A stretch of 59,880 nucleotides of DNA, taken from the sequence record LR025197.1, one strand, 5' to 3'. A program made the translations under genes and the position numbers. Source of the DNA: Escherichia phage vB_Eco_SLUR75. Each line of letters starts with the position of its first letter. Position 1 is the first letter of the stretch. This document shows positions 1,316-34,419 of this stretch, one piece after another. A model generated the notes under the pieces. The model was not told the origin of the DNA. It searched no databases and saw nothing but the letters and a program-made list of their open reading frames with translations.

Positions 1316-1618
1316 ATGCTGTATTTAGGAATGGACGAAACTGGACACGCGATCCCTTCTGTTAACAAGGAGACGCGAGTATTTACAGACTATTACGGGT
1401 CTGCTGTCCCTGTTGAGCCCTGGGCTAACTTTATCGCTGTAGACGCAGACGGTAAAGTACATTGTTATGACGCCAAACCTTCTTGCTATGAATCTGGTAA
1501 GCAATGGATGCTTGGCGTATACGGTTTGCATGTTCGCTACTGCGGCGAAGTTGACATTGAAGGTGTGGACTGGCGCGATACGCTAAGGGAAATCAAAGAA
1601 TATAGGCTTAACCCATGA
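1316..1618 (+). CDS. Small protein, paralog family member B (100 aa)
   Basis: RBS GGAGG; motifs FIAVDADGKVHCYDAKP and GVDWRDTLREI shared with paralogs A and C. Confidence 0.55.
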   Translation: MLYLGMDETGHAIPSVNKETRVFTDYYGSAVPVEPWANFIAVDADGKVHCYDAKPSCYESGKQWMLGVYGLHVRYCGEVDIEGVDWRDTLREIKEYRLNP

Positions 1619-1839
1619 AAATATTCATGATACTAGGCGTTATAGTTGCCGCTTTCGTTGTATTTGCAATTGTAGACTCTAAAGAAATGGAGCGGCAAAA
1701 CTGCCAACGCACTGGTAACAGCCGTGAGGATATCATTTGGCAATATATTTACGATGCAAAAGGTAATGTTATGTCAATGTATCCTCAGGTTATTACTGAG
1801 TATGAATATAAATGCAATGACCGTAACAGGTGGAGATAA
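1615..1839 (+). CDS. Small membrane protein (74 aa)
   Basis: ATGA start/stop overlap with the upstream gene; N-terminal hydrophobic helix ILGVIVAAFVVFAIV. Confidence 0.5.
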   Translation: MKIFMILGVIVAAFVVFAIVDSKEMERQNCQRTGNSREDIIWQYIYDAKGNVMSMYPQVITEYEYKCNDRNRWR

Positions 1840-5000: not shown

Positions 5001-5438
5001 ATGGCACTTCAACCTCGTGGTATTCGTAATAACAATCCAGGCAATATTCGCTGGGGTGACAATTGGCAGGGCTTAGTTCCTGCTGATAAGCGAACCGATA
5101 AATCTTTTGCGCAATTCACGCAACCGATTTACGGCATTCGTGCGCTAGCGAAAATCCTGACAAACTACACCAAACGTGAAGGCTTGCCCAATGTGGGTAA
5201 GAAAAACATCGACACTGTACGTGAAATTATCGCTCGCTGGGCACCGCCTAACGAAAACGATACGGAAGCGTATATTCGCTCTGTTGCCAAAGCAATTGGT
5301 GTTCAACCTAACGATCCAATTAATGTCTTCGACAAGGCAATTATGTCAGGATTGGTGAAAGCAATCATTCGTCATGAAAATGGCATGATGCCCTATACCG
5401 ATGACGTAATTAACCGCGCTATTGCAATGGTACTTTAA
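5001..5438 (+). CDS. Putative endolysin (145 aa)
   Basis: ATG at M91 of track ORF 4731..5438 with RBS GGAGGAA; sits directly upstream of holin/spanin genes; conserved GIRNNNPGNIRWG motif; followed by a terminator hairpin. Function is by context only. Confidence 0.35.
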   Translation: MALQPRGIRNNNPGNIRWGDNWQGLVPADKRTDKSFAQFTQPIYGIRALAKILTNYTKREGLPNVGKKNIDTVREIIARWAPPNENDTEAYIRSVAKAIGVQPNDPINVFDKAIMSGLVKAIIRHENGMMPYTDDVINRAIAMVL

Positions 5439-5442
5439 CTGA

Positions 5443-5465
5443 CGGGGCGTTAGCCCCTTTTATTT
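5443..5465 (+). terminator. Rho-independent terminator
   Basis: GGGGC-gtta-GCCCC hairpin followed by TTTTATTT. Confidence 0.6.
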
Positions 5466-5474
5466 GGAGGGAAC

Positions 5475-5819
5475 ATGTTCAATTCACCCAACGAACATTG
5501 GGCAGTTCTAGCGGGGTTTGCGTTTATCTCCCTCATTGGGGGAGCTCTCGGTTATGTCATGCGTACAATAGACGCTGGTAAGAAAGTACGGGCAAGCATT
5601 GCATTTCTTGAAGGCTTATCCGCCGCTTTCTTTGGCGTTATAATGTATGCGATCTACAGGGAGTTTAACATCAGCCTTTGGTTCGCTTTTGGCCTTGCTG
5701 GCCTATTTGCTTGGGCAGGTTCACGTGCTACGCTAAAAGCCCTAACGTCGCTTATAGCTTCACGGACAGGGATCAAACTCGATTCAGGGGACTGCAAACA
5801 TGAAAACGATTCTAAATAA
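5475..5819 (+). CDS. Putative holin (114 aa)
   Basis: Three predicted TM segments with a charged C-terminal tail; position in lysis cassette. Confidence 0.5.
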   Translation: MFNSPNEHWAVLAGFAFISLIGGALGYVMRTIDAGKKVRASIAFLEGLSAAFFGVIMYAIYREFNISLWFAFGLAGLFAWAGSRATLKALTSLIASRTGIKLDSGDCKHENDSK

Positions 5820-6276
5820 CTTCTTCAGTTTTATAAAAACTAAACCGCGTCTGTTTATCGAGTATTTGATGATCGGCGCGGTTGTGTTTTTATGCGGGGT
5901 GGCTGCATACTTGTGGTCACAGAACGAGCTCAGCAAAACTAATTTAAATCATGCTGAGCAAAGACTAACCGTTGTAGAACGGGACAATGCAAAGCTGGGC
6001 GAAGCTGTTGTATTTCTTGCATCCCAACGGGAGAAGGATACTGAATCCTATCGAAAATTGGCTTCAGCGATTGAAAGTGAGCAACATAACCACAGGTTGC
6101 TTCAGGACAAATTAAAAGCACTGGAGAAAAGCAATGCCGACGTCAAAGCTTATCTTAATGAGCGTGTTCCTGATGATTTGCGCAGGCTGCTCGACGGAGA
6201 TACAACCTCCACCACAGCCACAGATAGTCAAGATAAAACTTCCGGCTCATCTGTTGGTAGAATGTCGGGAAGTTGA
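5800..6276 (+). CDS. Putative i-spanin, Rz-like (158 aa)
   Basis: N-terminal TM helix LMIGAVVFLCGVAAYLW followed by a coiled-coil periplasmic domain; overlaps the o-spanin gene. Confidence 0.5.
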   Translation: MKTILNNFFSFIKTKPRLFIEYLMIGAVVFLCGVAAYLWSQNELSKTNLNHAEQRLTVVERDNAKLGEAVVFLASQREKDTESYRKLASAIESEQHNHRLLQDKLKALEKSNADVKAYLNERVPDDLRRLLDGDTTSTTATDSQDKTSGSSVGRMSGS

Positions 6277-6439
6277 TAAATATCCTTTGGTTTATACAAG
6301 GGACATTATCCAACGTTTGCAGGATACAGAAACAGCTCTGACTGAATGTAAACTGAGGGTTAAGGAAATCATACGCTATGAAGCTGAAAATGTTTCGCTT
6401 GATTTTGTAGGATCAAGCAATTATATTCAGCCTAAATAG
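6134..6439 (+). CDS. Putative o-spanin lipoprotein, Rz1-like (101 aa)
   Basis: Signal peptide with lipobox-like MICAGCS, proline-rich QPPPQPQ; starts inside the i-spanin gene in another frame. Confidence 0.5.
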   Translation: MPTSKLILMSVFLMICAGCSTEIQPPPQPQIVKIKLPAHLLVECREVDKYPLVYTRDIIQRLQDTETALTECKLRVKEIIRYEAENVSLDFVGSSNYIQPK

Positions 6440-24742: not shown

Positions 24743-24770
24743 TTAACCCCTCAAACGAGGGGTTAATTTT
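24743..24770. terminator. Bidirectional terminator hairpin
   Basis: AACCCCTC-aaac-GAGGGGTT with A-run upstream and T-run downstream; between convergent J-like and lipoprotein genes. Confidence 0.6.
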
Positions 24771-25003
24771 CAATAATCAATCACACAGTTTGAAGGTGAG
24801 CCAATTCGTCGGTATTCGTGATCAATTTCATGACACCATTGCCCAGTCATTGGAAGCTTTTCGGTATCATAAATTAAAGAACCGTTACCATCGCGATCCA
24901 AAGGTTTTGGAACGACGCCGGAATTAGGTTTACCAGTATTTAAACCATTACCACATGCGGTAAGGGACAAACATAATGCCAGCATAATTAGAGCGTGTTT
25001 CAT
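24770..25003 (-). CDS. Small lipoprotein, candidate superinfection-exclusion protein (77 aa)
   Basis: Signal peptide with lipobox LSLTAC|G; sole opposite-strand gene in the tail module, between the J-like and tail fiber genes. Confidence 0.55.
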   Translation of the reverse strand: MKHALIMLALCLSLTACGNGLNTGKPNSGVVPKPLDRDGNGSLIYDTEKLPMTGQWCHEIDHEYRRIGSPSNCVIDY

Positions 25004-29422: not shown

Positions 29423-29791
29423 ATGAGCCACATTAAAATCGCAACGATGGGAATACCACGGGTTAAATTGCCTAAGGTTGCTTTACCTCGCATTAGCGTA
29501 GGTGAGCACCACCATGAACACGAGAAAGAGGAATATAAACATGCTCACTCTTATGCTCGAGATCATGAACATATGGCAGCTATGTCAAATGTTCTTGACC
29601 GGATGGAAGAACCTCCGCATACGTGGGCGGCGTACCACGACAAGCCCGGCGGTATGATGTCCATTGTTGAAATGGAATACCGCGAATTAATGGAGTGTAA
29701 GAAAGAAGGCGACCGCGCAGGGATCATGAAAGAGTTGACTGATCTTGCCGCAGCTTGTACTTGCGCTCTTCAAAAAATGAAAGATATGTAA
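29423..29791 (+). CDS. His-rich protein, possible MazG-like NTP pyrophosphohydrolase (122 aa)
   Basis: GEHHHEHEKEEYKHAHSYARDHEH metal-binding-like stretch; EMEYRELME...MKELTDL resembles the ExxE...ExxD pattern of MazG/HisE proteins. Confidence 0.3.
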   Translation: MSHIKIATMGIPRVKLPKVALPRISVGEHHHEHEKEEYKHAHSYARDHEHMAAMSNVLDRMEEPPHTWAAYHDKPGGMMSIVEMEYRELMECKKEGDRAGIMKELTDLAAACTCALQKMKDM

Positions 29792-29806
29792 GAATAGGAA
29801 GCCGAC

Positions 29807-30337
29807 ATGCAAAACGTAAACGCAGGAATGGGCGTAACCCAGTTCAACGGGATGAAACCGAAAAACTCCATCAACATGGGCGGTGTTGATTGGACGTTAC
29901 GTCGGGACGCTACCGATTCAACTACCATGTTCCCACACCAGAAGGTGAGCTGGCTTAATGCTGGCTGTGAACCTATGGGTGATGGAAGGGTTCATTACTG
30001 TTGGATTATGGGAGTGATACCGCCTACGCCGGGCACTATCGAACGACCCGTGAATGTGATGTATGTCGGCTTCCACCAGTTCAAGATCACAATTGCTCCA
30101 AACTCCATTAGTCAGTCAGATCTTGATCGTATGCATGTTTACGTCAGCGATGGTACAGACTTCGCAGGGGATTTTATTAGTAAGTTTCTTGGTATGCAAC
30201 CAGAGCAGCCTGTAGAAGCACGCGAGCATATTAGCCCGTGGCCACCCATGATTGATCAGGAAGTGCTGCAACCAAAGACCGCTCAAACGGTCCCTCAGAA
30301 ACCGGAGCAGAAGGTGAAACCAAATGACGAAGAATGA
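29807..30337 (+). CDS. Hypothetical protein (176 aa)
   Basis: RBS-like GGAAG upstream; no recognisable motif. Confidence 0.5.
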   Translation: MQNVNAGMGVTQFNGMKPKNSINMGGVDWTLRRDATDSTTMFPHQKVSWLNAGCEPMGDGRVHYCWIMGVIPPTPGTIERPVNVMYVGFHQFKITIAPNSISQSDLDRMHVYVSDGTDFAGDFISKFLGMQPEQPVEAREHISPWPPMIDQEVLQPKTAQTVPQKPEQKVKPNDEE

Positions 30338-30608
30338 AGGTATTGATAAAGTCGTTGAAGGGCTTTCTATTCGTGCTCATGTTATAGCAGACGAAGGTCA
30401 TGATCAACTCACAATTATGAAATCTGCATTCAGCGATTTTAAGTCTCTTGGAAACTTAAGCGGGTTAATGACTGTGGTGTCGACCGGAAAATTAACCCAG
30501 CAGCAAATCAGTCTGGCTCAGCGTATTGCTGTTAAAGTTATTGCGGTACTTGGGATGATTGAAGCTGAAAAGCCCAGTTCCAAGCAGGATAACGAAAGCG
30601 ACCTTTAA
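30324..30608 (+). CDS. Hypothetical protein (94 aa)
   Basis: Overlaps upstream gene end. Confidence 0.45.
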   Translation: MTKNEGIDKVVEGLSIRAHVIADEGHDQLTIMKSAFSDFKSLGNLSGLMTVVSTGKLTQQQISLAQRIAVKVIAVLGMIEAEKPSSKQDNESDL

Positions 30609-30619
30609 GGAGGTCTACT

Positions 30620-30823
30620 ATGTGTGGTAATACTAACCGTTGCTGTCTAGGCAGTCCTGCAACACAAGCAGGTATACTTCAGGGGCAATTAGCTCAAGCA
30701 GCGTGTAATTGCAAAACTTTTCAACCAGTAGCGCCAACTCCTGTGTTTGTGAATGCTTTTGCACCGCCTGTTTTCAATACTTTTGGCGTATACCCATACG
30801 GTGCTTTCTTTCGTATATTCTAA
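30620..30823 (+). CDS. Small Cys-rich protein (67 aa)
   Basis: RBS AAGGAGG; CCLGS...CNCK cysteines; last gene of the forward arm. Confidence 0.45.
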   Translation: MCGNTNRCCLGSPATQAGILQGQLAQAACNCKTFQPVAPTPVFVNAFAPPVFNTFGVYPYGAFFRIF

Positions 30824-30825
30824 GA

Positions 30826-30855
30826 AGAGAAAGGGGGCAAACGCCCCCTTTCTTT
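30826..30855. terminator. Bidirectional terminator at convergence of the two arms
   Basis: AGGGGGC-aaac-GCCCCCT hairpin flanked by A-run and T-run; stops of converging genes at 30823 (+) and 30854 (-). Confidence 0.7.
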
Positions 30856-31135
30856 AACGCTTATGAAAAGCTGACAGGATTGCAAGTGTTACAGCACCCA
30901 ATCCGACGACGGTAGCATAAGTGAGTTGGTGTTGAACTTTAACAAAGCCATAATAGGTGCTAGGGATGTCTACAATCCCAAACGCCATAGCAAAACTGGT
31001 CCCAAGCAGTGCTACAGCAAGGGCGCGTAATAACGCCCTGCTCATTGCTGTAAAGCCCTTCTCATTACTATCTCCGGTCATTATAACAACAATGATTAGA
31101 AATAGCGAAACGACAACTAATAGATATTCCATCAT
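30854..31135 (-). CDS. Small membrane protein (93 aa)
   Basis: Three predicted TM helices. Confidence 0.5.
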   Translation of the reverse strand: MMEYLLVVVSLFLIIVVIMTGDSNEKGFTAMSRALLRALAVALLGTSFAMAFGIVDIPSTYYGFVKVQHQLTYATVVGLGAVTLAILSAFHKR

Positions 31136-31338
31136 TTGCGTCTCCTGTACATGTATTGATCATACGCAGTCGCAATAATAGTGACTGGCCAGCAAGCGAG
31201 TATACATAGAAGACTTACAATCTTCTCCCAACGTTTCTTATGGGCTAGCGCATAATCATAGTTATTCCAACAAAAGAAATAAGTCATTGTTGCAATAACT
31301 GCACCAATTACAAAATACATAACCACATATTCATGCAT
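31132..31338 (-). CDS. Small membrane protein (68 aa)
   Basis: Two predicted TM helices; ATGA coupling to neighbour. Confidence 0.5.
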   Translation of the reverse strand: MHEYVVMYFVIGAVIATMTYFFCWNNYDYALAHKKRWEKIVSLLCILACWPVTIIATAYDQYMYRRRK

Positions 31339-31525
31339 CGGTAAACTCCCAAATCAGAGTATAATTATTTCCCGCTTGTACATAGCGGCCTGGACGTGGA
31401 TCGAAGCTTTTCACTGAAAACTCCAGCGTTCCAGCGCTATATAGTTGCACCTTTTGTCCGTCCCACGGTCCGCCTATCAATTTAAAAGTCTGTCGATAAC
31501 CTTTTGCAGCTTTAGCCATGCTCAC
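31331..31525 (-). CDS. Hypothetical protein (64 aa)
   Basis: Overlaps neighbouring ORF ends. Confidence 0.4.
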   Translation of the reverse strand: MSMAKAAKGYRQTFKLIGGPWDGQKVQLYSAGTLEFSVKSFDPRPGRYVQAGNNYTLIWEFTDA

Positions 31526-31561
31526 TCCTTAAATACCCGCGCGAACGCGGGTATTATTTTA

Positions 31562-31759
31562 TTACGCTTCCGGTGATGGTTCATCAGGAACAACAATAAC
31601 GTCGGCTAAAACTTTTAACGCTTCTTGTTGCTCCGCGGTCATATTATTCCAGTAATAGACGTGAATGTAAACTACTGGTTTGTCACCATGTTGCCACGGT
31701 TCGCGACTTACTACATCCGCAGCTAAATCGCTTGCTACGCTCTTTTCTTTACCAGCCAT
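31562..31759 (-). CDS. Hypothetical acidic protein (65 aa)
   Basis: ORF with upstream RBS-like sequence. Confidence 0.4.
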   Translation of the reverse strand: MAGKEKSVASDLAADVVSREPWQHGDKPVVYIHVYYWNNMTAEQQEALKVLADVIVVPDEPSPEA

Positions 31760-31791
31760 GCTAATGTACCCCTTTAAGGTTTTACACGCGG

Positions 31792-32085
31792 CTAGCCCCC
31801 AAAAGTACCCATATGATCAAGGGTTCTAATGCGCTGCTCCAGCCAACGTGCGTTCTTTTCAAAATGTTTATTGGTACGCGCTGCTTTGCACGCATCAATA
31901 ATACCTAACTCACATCCAAGCTGCGTTTGTCCCATCACGTAAGAATGGGTTAACATGCTGGATACAAGCTCTTCACATTGTAACTTAATAGGATGGTCTT
32001 GGCATAGTTTCTTTGCTGCATCTTTTAAATCCACAGCTTGGACACCAGGCGCTATCAACAAAGTTACGAGTAATAAACGTTTCAT
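31792..32085 (-). CDS. Secreted Cys-containing protein (97 aa)
   Basis: N-terminal signal peptide MKRLLLVTLLIAPGVQA; four Cys in the mature part. Confidence 0.5.
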   Translation of the reverse strand: MKRLLLVTLLIAPGVQAVDLKDAAKKLCQDHPIKLQCEELVSSMLTHSYVMGQTQLGCELGIIDACKAARTNKHFEKNARWLEQRIRTLDHMGTFGG

Positions 32086-32369
32086 TATGCTTTCCCTTTA
32101 CGACATAAGGCTTGAAGTTCCAGAAGCGCATCAATGTCTTCCTGTGGAGTTACACCAACGTGAATTGGATATTTAGCGCGACATTCGTTGCCGACTTCAA
32201 CAGTGTGGTTAATGTAGCCGTAAACACATCCACCAATAAGAGTGAAGATAAGCGCAACAATCATTGTAAGGTACTTACCTTGTTTGCGTTCTTCATTTTG
32301 TTTATTAAGCTGACGGTTAAGTTCTACCGCGTCGATTTTACCTTTATTGTAATCGTCTACTAAGCTCAT
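32085..32369 (-). CDS. Membrane-anchored protein (94 aa)
   Basis: ATG at M20 of track ORF with RBS GAGGAG; single TM helix. Confidence 0.45.
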   Translation of the reverse strand: MSLVDDYNKGKIDAVELNRQLNKQNEERKQGKYLTMIVALIFTLIGGCVYGYINHTVEVGNECRAKYPIHVGVTPQEDIDALLELQALCRKGKA

Positions 32370-32433
32370 TTTGTATCTCCTCTTGTTGTATGCATATATT
32401 AAAACAGACCCGCGAAGGGTCTGCAAGTAGAAT

Positions 32434-34419
32434 TTAGGCGTATCCCATGTCTTCGAGATACTTCTCTGCTTTAGCTATATAAGCATCATAATCTATGTCG
32501 TCCGGCACTTTATCCGGTAGCGTCATGATCGGAACACCTCCCGCGCTACCAGCTACACGGTTGCCCGTGTTAGCATAGATTATTTCAGGTGTTTCTTCAT
32601 TAGTGCTTAAGTACCAGCGTACAACCTTACCCAAAAATTCGCCATTCCATACCGCGCCACCTTTTACCGCACGTAAGATAATGAATTTTCTAATATCGTT
32701 GCAATTGCGTATAGTACGAGAAACAGGCGTACCGTGGGCCAAACATTCACATACAGCTTCCATAATAATCTCACCAGTACAGTTCTTTTGAAGACCTGTC
32801 TTTGCGAACCACCCTTTACGCTTAATTTCAACATTTCCTTCCTCGTCAGGTTCTTTTACTGCAACATAGTTATTGACGTTAGCACTGTACAGCTTGTCAT
32901 AGTAGTTGGATTCCATTTCAAAACCTGTTACGGATTCCCACCACTTGATCATATTATCAACGAAGTCCTGCATGTGGTCCGGATACTTAACCACAATACC
33001 GTCCGTGTTGGCTGAAATTACTTTAACACCATTTAACTCAAATGCTTCAATAAGCATCAACAGTGAAAGCTGTCCGGTTAATGTAACTTGTATCAATAAT
33101 TGCGGCGCGTACAGTACGGACCACATAGACCCCAGCTTACCAAACGATCCGTTGATAACGATCTTCAGCGTGTTGGCTGTGTTTTTGTCCCCTGAGTGCT
33201 TAGCTGCAATACGACGATCTACAATACTCTTATAAACACGAAGGAACGCTGGTCCCAACTGTTCTGGATATAAGCCCTGATTAAGAATGATTGTAGGATA
33301 ATAAGACGTTACGTCAATGTCCCGCTTTTTGATACCAGGCTCTTTACCGTGGCCAGCACACTCTTCGGAGCTATGCAAACCACCAATACCCATACGGTAG
33401 ACACCGTCCGCAATCTTGATTTCAAGACCTGTCAATGCAGGAGGTAAGCTGACACCACCGTTATCGCTAACAATAAAGCGACAGTCCCGAACAATATCCA
33501 AAACACTATTCATCAAAGGTGTTTGAAAACGAATAAAGTCCGGTATGTTGTATACATACTTTGTTCCAGGATAAACTTGCGGACGCTGTGGGCGCACGCC
33601 CGTCAACGCTTGGATTTCGTGCTTAATTACGTCTTCTGCAATTTGTGCATCGGAGCGTGAACGCAGGTCCACACCGTACTCTTGCGACATAATTTCACGA
33701 AGGTGTAAAGGTTCTTGTAATGCAATAAAACATTCTTCCGTCTGTACAAGGTCGTTAATACAGTACCAGCGCACAATAAGCATCTGGTCTTGCGTCAACA
33801 TTGTATTAGGCTTGAACGGTAAATCCTGCATACGACGAGTATGTACACGTCCGCCGTATTGTTTCAAACCGCCGGACCCAGGCAGCACTTCCATGATATC
33901 GATGTGGTTAACGTTCTGCATACGCTTGAGACGGTAACTCTTCAATACATCCGAAGGACGCCAGTCTTCAACGATTATTTTATCAGTTGCGTCTTTAAGC
34001 TGAGCATTAGAGCAGCCGTTAAGCGCAAGCGTAGCAATGGGCATATCGTACCCGTTACCGTTAAAGCTCACGATAAGGAAGTTTGTCATTACCCAGTTAA
34101 GTAGCAAGCAATTCAAACTACAACCGTGATACATCTCGAAGTAGACAACTTTCTTAGTTCGCACTCCGCGAAATGCAATTAAGAAATAATTTGGATAACA
34201 TTCTATATCATATACAAGCGGTTCGCGGTTAATCCATGCTTGAATAAGTTCGTCCTGTGTGTACAGGTTGTATTGGAAGTTCCGCGCTTCCTCAAGGTTA
34301 GGCAAATAATCCGGGCGCTCCCAAGTGCGCTCCGGCGGTAAACGTTTAACTTTTTCTTTCTTTGCTTTTGGCTCAGGCGGTAAGTCCTGCCAAAAGAAAC
34401 CAATAGCATCTGTCCGCAT
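32434..34419 (-). CDS. DNA polymerase, family B, with 3'-5' exonuclease domain (661 aa)
   Basis: Exo I LVYDIECY, Exo II NGNGYDMPI, pol motif A-like DIDVTSYYPT, motif B KIVINGSFGKLG, motif C-like ISANTDGI. Start at M19 of track ORF, overlapping upstream stop as TAATG. Confidence 0.8.
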   Translation of the reverse strand: MRTDAIGFFWQDLPPEPKAKKEKVKRLPPERTWERPDYLPNLEEARNFQYNLYTQDELIQAWINREPLVYDIECYPNYFLIAFRGVRTKKVVYFEMYHGCSLNCLLLNWVMTNFLIVSFNGNGYDMPIATLALNGCSNAQLKDATDKIIVEDWRPSDVLKSYRLKRMQNVNHIDIMEVLPGSGGLKQYGGRVHTRRMQDLPFKPNTMLTQDQMLIVRWYCINDLVQTEECFIALQEPLHLREIMSQEYGVDLRSRSDAQIAEDVIKHEIQALTGVRPQRPQVYPGTKYVYNIPDFIRFQTPLMNSVLDIVRDCRFIVSDNGGVSLPPALTGLEIKIADGVYRMGIGGLHSSEECAGHGKEPGIKKRDIDVTSYYPTIILNQGLYPEQLGPAFLRVYKSIVDRRIAAKHSGDKNTANTLKIVINGSFGKLGSMWSVLYAPQLLIQVTLTGQLSLLMLIEAFELNGVKVISANTDGIVVKYPDHMQDFVDNMIKWWESVTGFEMESNYYDKLYSANVNNYVAVKEPDEEGNVEIKRKGWFAKTGLQKNCTGEIIMEAVCECLAHGTPVSRTIRNCNDIRKFIILRAVKGGAVWNGEFLGKVVRWYLSTNEETPEIIYANTGNRVAGSAGGVPIMTLPDKVPDDIDYDAYIAKAEKYLEDMGYA

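Follow-up and report, generated by a model that had tools for sequence, protein, structure and literature searches.

Six small genes at the convergent arm junction of a Seuratvirus genome: a mosaic accessory block with four predicted envelope proteins

Introduction

Outside lysis, the small phage envelope proteins of known role serve mostly in exclusion, as do Imm and Spackle of T4, Sim of P1, SieA of P22, gp15 of HK97 and the Cor/Llp proteins, and post-adsorption protection by small virulent siphoviruses is poorly known beyond the examples of T4, P1, P22 and HK97. Against this background we analysed six consecutive small genes, here named P1 to P6 in order of transcription, which occupy positions 32369 to 30854 on the reverse strand of Escherichia phage vB_Eco_SLUR75 (LR025197.1). 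The stretch analysed, hereafter the window (59,880 nucleotides, 59.9 kb), comprises the whole genome of a virulent siphovirus of E. coli, a Seuratvirus (Queuovirinae) from a group that is represented in the BASEL collection and considered for therapy. A preliminary description of the window had treated the six genes as one envelope-targeted module that might mediate superinfection exclusion, lysis timing or host-envelope remodelling. Our results point to a dispensable block of mixed ancestry, for whose envelope proteins a role in post-adsorption protection is proposed tentatively.

The closest described systems offer likenesses to several of the genes. T4 Spackle is an early gene product made as a precursor of 97 amino acids (aa), which becomes a disulfide-bonded helical periplasmic protein (PMC7677548). 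P2 is also a dispensable 97-aa precursor with a cleavable signal and, judging from its model, a helical, Cys-containing mature part of about 75-80 aa, but it has four Cys as against two in mature Spackle and is coupled to a membrane-anchored partner, as Spackle is not. P1, P5 and P6 recall T4 Imm, P22 SieA and HK97 gp15 in being small, dispensable, putative inner-membrane proteins. In T4, imm.1 and imm come directly after the DNA polymerase gene (gene 43) and in the same direction (locus L018, 9374-12894), and the membrane-protein genes studied here also lie downstream of the polymerase gene; this likeness is positional only, with no homology. The Cor/Llp proteins of T1-, T5- and phi80-like phages are likewise small siphovirus envelope proteins, used for exclusion, although the lipobox gene of the window (24770-25003) stands beside the tail tip and is none of P1-P6. 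Finally, P4 shares with the anti-BREX (bacteriophage exclusion) proteins T7 Ocr, ICP1 OrbA and the products of ORF46 and ORF72 of phage DruSM1 that it is small and dispensable and that, in DruSM1, plating on BREX type I drops when it is deleted; it is not an acidic DNA mimic, being basic and, by prediction, rich in beta structure, and in the libraries searched it resembles no known anti-BREX protein.

Results

The six open reading frames (ORFs), all on the reverse strand, are listed with their counterparts in phages Seurat and DruSM1 and with the ratio of nonsynonymous to synonymous polymorphism (pN/pS) computed among 11-12 close Seuratvirus genomes.

P1: 32369..32085, reverse strand, 94 aa; Seurat gp29, DruSM1 ORF35; pN/pS 0.12
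P2: 32085..31792, reverse strand, 97 aa; Seurat gp28, DruSM1 ORF34; pN/pS 0.19
P3: 31759..31562, reverse strand, 65 aa; Seurat gp27, DruSM1 ORF33; pN/pS 0.15
P4: 31519..31331, reverse strand, 62 aa; Seurat gp26, DruSM1 ORF32; pN/pS 0.20
P5: 31338..31132, reverse strand, 68 aa; Seurat gp25, DruSM1 ORF31; pN/pS 0.26
P6: 31135..30854, reverse strand, 93 aa; Seurat gp24, DruSM1 ORF30; pN/pS 0.09

All six are genuine genes, as is evident from the Shine-Dalgarno sequence that each of them possesses, from their coupled starts (stop/start overlaps of 1 nt for P1/P2, 8 nt for P4/P5 and 4 nt, ATGA, for P5/P6), from the purifying selection acting on every reading frame (pN/pS 0.09-0.26) and from their annotation, always as hypothetical, in nearly all full-length relatives among about 33 related phage records. 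The coordinates of the preliminary description stood except for the start of P4, which had been placed at GTG 31525 (64 aa). ATG 31519 (62 aa) is the better choice, because the GTG lies in the gap between the AAGGAG Shine-Dalgarno sequence, 6 nt upstream of the ATG, and the ATG itself, which is also the start used by GenBank records. The same description had predicted four of the six products to be envelope-targeted and the other two to lack both transmembrane (TM) segments and signal peptides, and on both counts we agree. By Kyte-Doolittle hydropathy (19-residue windows, threshold >=1.6), P1 has one TM segment, P5 two and P6 three, and the N-terminus of P2 is a Sec signal peptide. Envelope targeting is kept across lineages that have as little as 30-57% identity, the P2 signal peptide and its -3/-1 residues being kept at 30-69%; P3 and P4 have no TM segment and are soluble by the same measure.

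Single-ORF deletions are available for the Seuratvirus phage DruSM1 (Ojima et al., bioRxiv 10.1101/2024.04.14.589459), which is 97.6% identical to the window over 30600-32500 and in which the published deletion primers mapped ORF30-35 to P6, P5, P4, P3, P2 and P1, respectively. Each of these six deletions yielded viable phage (10.1101/2024.04.14.589459). P1-P6 are therefore dispensable for plaque formation on laboratory E. coli, in agreement with two natural loss variants, SeppeHuegi (P1 truncated) and VogelGryff (no P6 and half of P5). In the defence column of Table S1 of the same study, only the ORF32 (P4) deletion, which was checked by polymerase chain reaction, has an entry, 'Brex type1', the mutant being less infectious on BREX type I; the deletions of P1, P2, P5 and P6 left sensitivity unchanged in the defence-library screen (33 different systems according to the legend of Figure 4A), and complementation is reported for ORF46 and ORF72, not for ORF32 (10.1101/2024.04.14.589459).

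Table S1 also marks as 'synthesized: Yes' the deletions of the DNA polymerase (ORF36) and sliding-clamp (ORF37) genes (32434-34419 in the window), which is surprising for core replication genes. The lenient threshold of more than 10 plaques may explain these two entries, so that 'dispensable' should be read with care there.

The block lies where the forward arm of the genome (early, lysis and structural genes) meets the reverse arm (replication and deazaguanine-modification genes), the annotation being as in KurtStettler/Bas22; the sign of the GC skew flips at about 31 kb, which fits this convergence. P1-P6 are the final genes of the leftward arm, bounded by a hairpin after the polymerase gene and by the terminator at the junction. 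Three structured elements were recorded:

32404..32424, reverse strand: intrinsic-terminator-like hairpin followed by UUUU, found by the scan in the gap that separates the DNA polymerase stop from the P1 start; -13.6 kcal/mol, z -4.2
31532..31555, reverse strand: stable hairpin between P3 and P4, its reverse-strand U-tail being weak; -15.8 kcal/mol
30830..30850, both strands: bidirectional terminator at the convergence of the arms; -21.1 kcal/mol on one strand and -23.3 on the other

The first of them is an annotated terminator in Seurat and SA126VB, and the last is bidirectional in the Seurat annotation as well. The middle hairpin, annotated as a terminator in SA126VB, ends right before the P4 Shine-Dalgarno sequence and divides P1-P2-P3 from P4-P5-P6. 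No RNA elements or repeats were found within the block, and a literature search on the phage name CAjan, the only name used, turned up no expression study. The region 30600-32500 is matched at >=90% identity by 33 phage records, being 98.7% identical to SLUR76 and SLUR26 and 98.6% to Greed.

A tblastn search with each protein against 50,697 phage records showed how unevenly the six are distributed. P1, P2, P3 and P5 are confined to Seuratvirus, with distant copies of P1 and P2 in STP-SP5 and yong3 and of P3 only in STP-SP5. Weak relatives of P4 occur in phages of Erwinia, Vibrio and Klebsiella, and an exhaustive HMMER search of 1.84 billion proteins with its profile matched 35 representative clusters, which are sparse, small, unannotated proteins. 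P6, as described below, recurs in other phage genera. The content of the junction itself varies, since STP-SP5 lacks P5 and yong3 lacks P3. With at least three separate evolutionary histories behind these differing phyletic distributions, the single module of the preliminary description does not hold, and the block is a mosaic of at least three independent units, namely P1-P2 (with P3 next in order), P4 and P5-P6. In Nonagvirus 9g the block is absent, the DNA polymerase gene ending the arm and converging directly on the tail-fibre assembly gene, and this empty junction indicates that the block of about 3 kb is a lineage-specific addition. Searches of 5.8 billion proteins with P2, P6 and P4 returned Seuratvirus-like clusters only (just four for P2), and scans of IMG/VR and metagenomes with the P6 and P1 profiles returned the same phage groups only. 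An origin from a prophage or from the host was considered and rejected, because none of 5,426 complete E. coli genomes gave a match.

P1, preceded by the ribosome-binding site AGGAG, consists of a conserved N-terminus (aa 1-33; the highly conserved sequence is MSLVDDYNKGKIDAVELNR), a TM segment at about aa 31-54 and a C-terminal domain of about 40 aa that includes C63 and C89. The basic flank ERKQGKY before the TM segment and the acidic flank after it indicate a predicted N-in/C-out topology in the inner membrane. P2 begins with MKR and a hydrophobic core and has a predicted cleavage site VQA|VD, and the -3/-1 rule also holds in its diverged homologues (VNA|VD, ASA|MT); once cleaved, it would comprise about 80 aa, predicted to be all-helical, the AlphaFold2 (AF2) model showing four helices at a pLDDT of 55, a poor value from a shallow alignment. 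Both periplasmic Cys of P1 and all four Cys of P2 are invariant, including in STP-SP5 and yong3, while the Cys within the P1 TM segment is not kept, a pattern that argues for an oxidising, periplasmic location. The stop of P1 and the start of P2 share 1 nt, so that the two genes are translationally coupled, an arrangement conserved in three lineages that include STP-SP5 and yong3. Across the E. coli Seuratviruses both proteins are 95-100% identical. Outside them, P1 falls to 52% in the Salmonella phage STP-SP5 and 44% in the Hafnia phage yong3, and P2 to 69% and 30%, respectively, which makes both far more diverged than the adjoining DNA polymerase (91% and 79%). In SeppeHuegi/Bas24 (locus L013, 1752-1934) a premature stop after residue 60 of P1 removes the two-Cys domain and leaves P2 intact. 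A search of the PDB with the P1 and P2 sequences gave nothing meaningful, and Foldseek with the P2 model found no PDB match at E <= 0.001 (best E 2.2). Two candidate relationships were discarded: P1 and P2 are not paralogues (BLASTP E 5.1), and the match of P2 residues 1-56 to the PHROG 'valyl tRNA synthetase modifier' (E 0.0016) is too weak and lies mainly at the signal-peptide end.

The two soluble proteins differ in charge, P3 being acidic and P4 basic. P3 lacks both a TM segment and a signal peptide. Its C-terminus (31562-31590) varies in the number of Pro-Glu-Thr repeats, reading PSPEA in the window, PSPETPEA in KurtStettler and PSPETPETPEA in DruSM1 and SeppeHuegi. P4 is predicted to be all-beta, with four strands in an AF2 model of poor confidence (pLDDT 60; shallow alignment), and has an invariant motif, LIGGPWDG, and a hypervariable loop (aa 47-55) before its last strand. 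The loop, which occurs in three allelic types, has an omega of 0.60 as against 0.07 for codons 1-46. Such a pattern fits a specificity-determining surface and is compatible with the BREX phenotype, although we take it as a lead only.

P5 has a basic C-terminal tail (RRRK) after its two TM segments and is restricted to the E. coli-type Seuratviruses; it is absent from STP-SP5 and half-deleted in VogelGryff. P6 is predicted to be N-out/C-in, with the invariant motif YYG[FY]VKxQH[QK]LT in the predicted periplasmic loop between TM2 and TM3. Homologues of P6 with 50-57% identity occur in 9NA (gp16, 53%), the Sasha-like phages, eiAU (gp12) and yong3, and in Nonanavirus 9NA, the Sasha-like phages, Eiauvirus eiAU and yong3 alike the homologue is the last gene of its operon, at a convergent junction. 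In every lineage a small envelope protein precedes it, even where the two upstream genes are not homologous (P5, 9NA gp17, eiAU gp13 and yong3 x98); x98, with 98 aa and three TM segments at the position of P5, matches P5 weakly (BLASTP E 0.013) and is possibly related to it. Across the terminator, P6 is faced by four genes of the forward arm:

F122: 29423-29791, forward strand; weak PRA-PH/MazG-like match
F176: 29807-30337, forward strand; 80% identical to its 9NA counterpart
F94: 30324-30608, forward strand
F67: 30620-30823, forward strand

These four (29423-30823) travel with P6 in 9NA, in some Sasha-like contigs, in eiAU and in yong3, and some 9NA-like contigs carry P6 without them. F176 is much better conserved towards 9NA than is P6 (80% against 53%). 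In DruSM1 the four genes (ORF26-29) are dispensable, and in VogelGryff/Bas25 an unrelated gene of 666 bp stands in place of F122-F67, P6 and half of P5.

The window has a complete lysis cassette elsewhere:

5001-6439, forward strand: lysis cassette upstream of the terminase genes, with endolysin, holin, i-spanin and o-spanin
5475-5819, forward strand: LydA-type holin (Pfam Phage_holin_3_3, E 4.8e-10, above the curated cut-off)
5800-6276, forward strand: i-spanin of the lysis cassette
6134-6439, forward strand: o-spanin lipoprotein, overlapping the i-spanin gene

Seurat has an annotated hairpin between the endolysin and holin genes. Since this canonical cassette lies on the opposite strand at a distance of about 25 kb, the idea that the block is itself a lysis cassette was rejected. 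P6, with three TM segments and a predicted N-out/C-in topology, resembles a class I holin, and P5, with two TM segments in 68 aa, is of pinholin size; the P6 tail, however, is no more than FHKR where holins typically have a charged one, its double Met start is not conserved, and the P5 tail is short and basic (YRRRK). P1 has the domain order of T4 holin T, a short cytoplasmic N-terminus being followed by a single TM segment and then by a Cys domain in the periplasm. Neither P5 nor P6 matched a holin or antiholin family in PHROGs or Pfam, and the P6 homologues of 9NA, eiAU, yong3 and locus L025 have no lysis gene beside them. The endolysin is soluble, without an N-terminal TM segment, so that a pinholin is not needed. 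P1-P2 do not look like spanins either, as the P1 TM segment is internal and P2 has no lipobox Cys, its cleavage site being of the signal peptidase I type (VQA|VD); no lipobox was found in any of P1-P6. A lipobox does occur in one further gene:

24770-25003, reverse strand: 77-aa lipoprotein gene with lipobox LTAC, antisense between the J-like tail-tip and lateral tail-fibre genes

The Seurat annotation lists this gene as an apparent moron and gives it a bidirectional terminator of its own, and its product is probably a receptor-blocking exclusion protein of the Cor/Llp type.

Discussion

The anatomy of the block and its accessory status are, in our judgement, very secure, and the block is a commonplace phage feature whose proteins have no characterised relatives. 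As to function, the reading that we favour, by analogy and at a probability of only about 0.3, is that P1-P2 and P5-P6 provide post-adsorption superinfection exclusion or envelope protection. The accessory genes were gained at the convergent arm junction in the Seuratvirus lineage. We envisage that their envelope proteins would be made from the leftward replication-gene arm, altering the infected cell at its inner membrane and in its periplasm in such a way that a later phage attack would fail after adsorption, at DNA entry. The analogues of the proposed action are T4 Imm plus Spackle, P1 Sim and HK97 gp15, and by a Pfam scan the tape measure protein of the window carries an HK97-type segment, HK97-type tape measures being the class of target proposed for gp15. 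P1 and P2 probably form a disulfide-stabilised complex, with the cytoplasmic N-terminus of P1 probably contacting a second partner. Several observations lead us to prefer a block after adsorption, starting with the exclusion precedent of such proteins. Queuovirinae similarity dips at the receptor-binding-protein and lateral-fibre loci, according to the BASEL paper, and P1 and P2 are near-invariant among E. coli Seuratviruses; in addition, a separate Cor/Llp-like gene lies beside the tail tip. Both points argue against action at the receptor, and an action of the envelope proteins at the receptor or in lysis is unlikely. The dispensability of all six genes also fits an accessory role such as exclusion. 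We count in favour of this reading, too, the divergence of P1 and P2 with the host of the phage, the resemblance of P2 to the Spackle precursor and the location of T4 imm. The bolder proposition that P1-P2 are a new two-part siphovirus system of exclusion or protection, acting on post-adsorption DNA entry and unrelated in sequence to Imm and Spackle while doing the same job, and that P4 is in addition a new anti-BREX protein whose specificity lies in its loop, strikes us as rather unlikely.

Several results weigh against post-adsorption protection by the envelope proteins. Of the six genes, only that of soluble P4 has an experimental phenotype. Envelope proteins cluster here only weakly beyond chance: when the order of about 91 genes, 11-13 of them for envelope proteins, is shuffled, four or more in six consecutive genes arise with P 0.08-0.16. 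All six proteins matched only families of unknown function or noise in PHROGs, Pfam, NCBIfam and PADLOC, and in these libraries P1, P5 and P6 had no match to families of the Imm, SieA or gp15 type. The hhalign alignment of P2 with T4 Sp reached a probability of 11% and covered the signal peptide only. The target of Spackle is a lysozyme domain, that of the T4 tail-spike protein gp5. No muralytic domain turned up when the tape measure, distal tail, tail-tip and fibre proteins of the window were scanned with Pfam (remote or novel domains could escape such a scan), so that a strict target of the Spackle type is missing. No promoter-like site was found by the scan upstream of P1, while a terminator-like hairpin precedes it. 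The AF2 models of P2 and P4 are of low confidence, the lipoprotein at 24770-25003 is a more conventional candidate for receptor-level exclusion than any of P1-P6, and no tool result or paper links P1, P2, P5 or P6 to exclusion, lysis timing or envelope remodelling.

The alternative that survives best, though we would still call it unlikely, is counter-defence or host takeover at the envelope, in which the membrane proteins would neutralise membrane-associated immunity or a host envelope function and P4 would be a cytoplasmic anti-BREX factor. It draws on the lower infectivity of the P4 deletion on BREX type I, on a P4 loop with omega near 0.6 on a scaffold at 0.07, as an arms race predicts, and on the strong divergence of the block with host genus. 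In published work VogelGryff/Bas25, which lacks P6, half of P5 and the forward neighbours, stands out for its sensitivity to EcoRI (PMC8594841), HigBAC (10.1101/2024.02.24.581848) and 46 human interferon-stimulated genes (10.64898/2026.06.11.731453), although this is a correlation only and its sensitivity may have other causes. Set against this are the unaltered defence sensitivities of the P1, P2, P5 and P6 deletions of DruSM1, the position of P4 and BREX outside the complemented, validated set of that study, and the lack of any PADLOC or anti-defence match. A paper on KpAvs2/Ksap1 that was also consulted concerns genes other than P1-P6.

It is also possible, if improbable, that the six share no function at all and are unrelated passengers at an insertion-tolerant junction, their envelope targeting being coincidental. 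Their separate roles could then include the anchoring of replication, as phage phi29 p16.7 anchors replication to the membrane. The mosaic distributions, the P value of the clustering, the empty Nonagvirus junction and the absence of P5 from STP-SP5 and of P3 from yong3 would all be expected of such passengers, but the gene upstream of P6 encodes a small envelope protein in every lineage, the coupling of P1 and P2 is kept, and purifying selection is strong enough to show every one of the genes to be of use. T4 RI and holin T delay lysis by sensing periplasmic signals, and a like role in lysis timing, with P5 and P6 as antiholins or auxiliary holins tuning the LydA-type holin and P1-P2 as periplasmic sensors that delay lysis, would suit the class-I-like topology of P6, the size of P5, the layout of P1 and the viable knockouts (such regulators being dispensable in the laboratory), yet it is very improbable given the complete cassette on the other strand, the five phage groups in which no P6 homologue adjoins an endolysin or holin gene, the tail, start and family searches reported above, and the soluble endolysin.

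Post-adsorption protection by P1-P2 or P5-P6, if it excludes related phages, would affect the design of phage cocktails, and an anti-BREX activity of P4 would add a new small inhibitor; should none of these readings hold, the block would be ordinary phage accessory material. The DruSM1 knockout library makes each of them quickly testable. Among the early genes, one more small gene without a family match (1615-1839, forward strand) encodes a 74-aa protein with an N-terminal TM segment.

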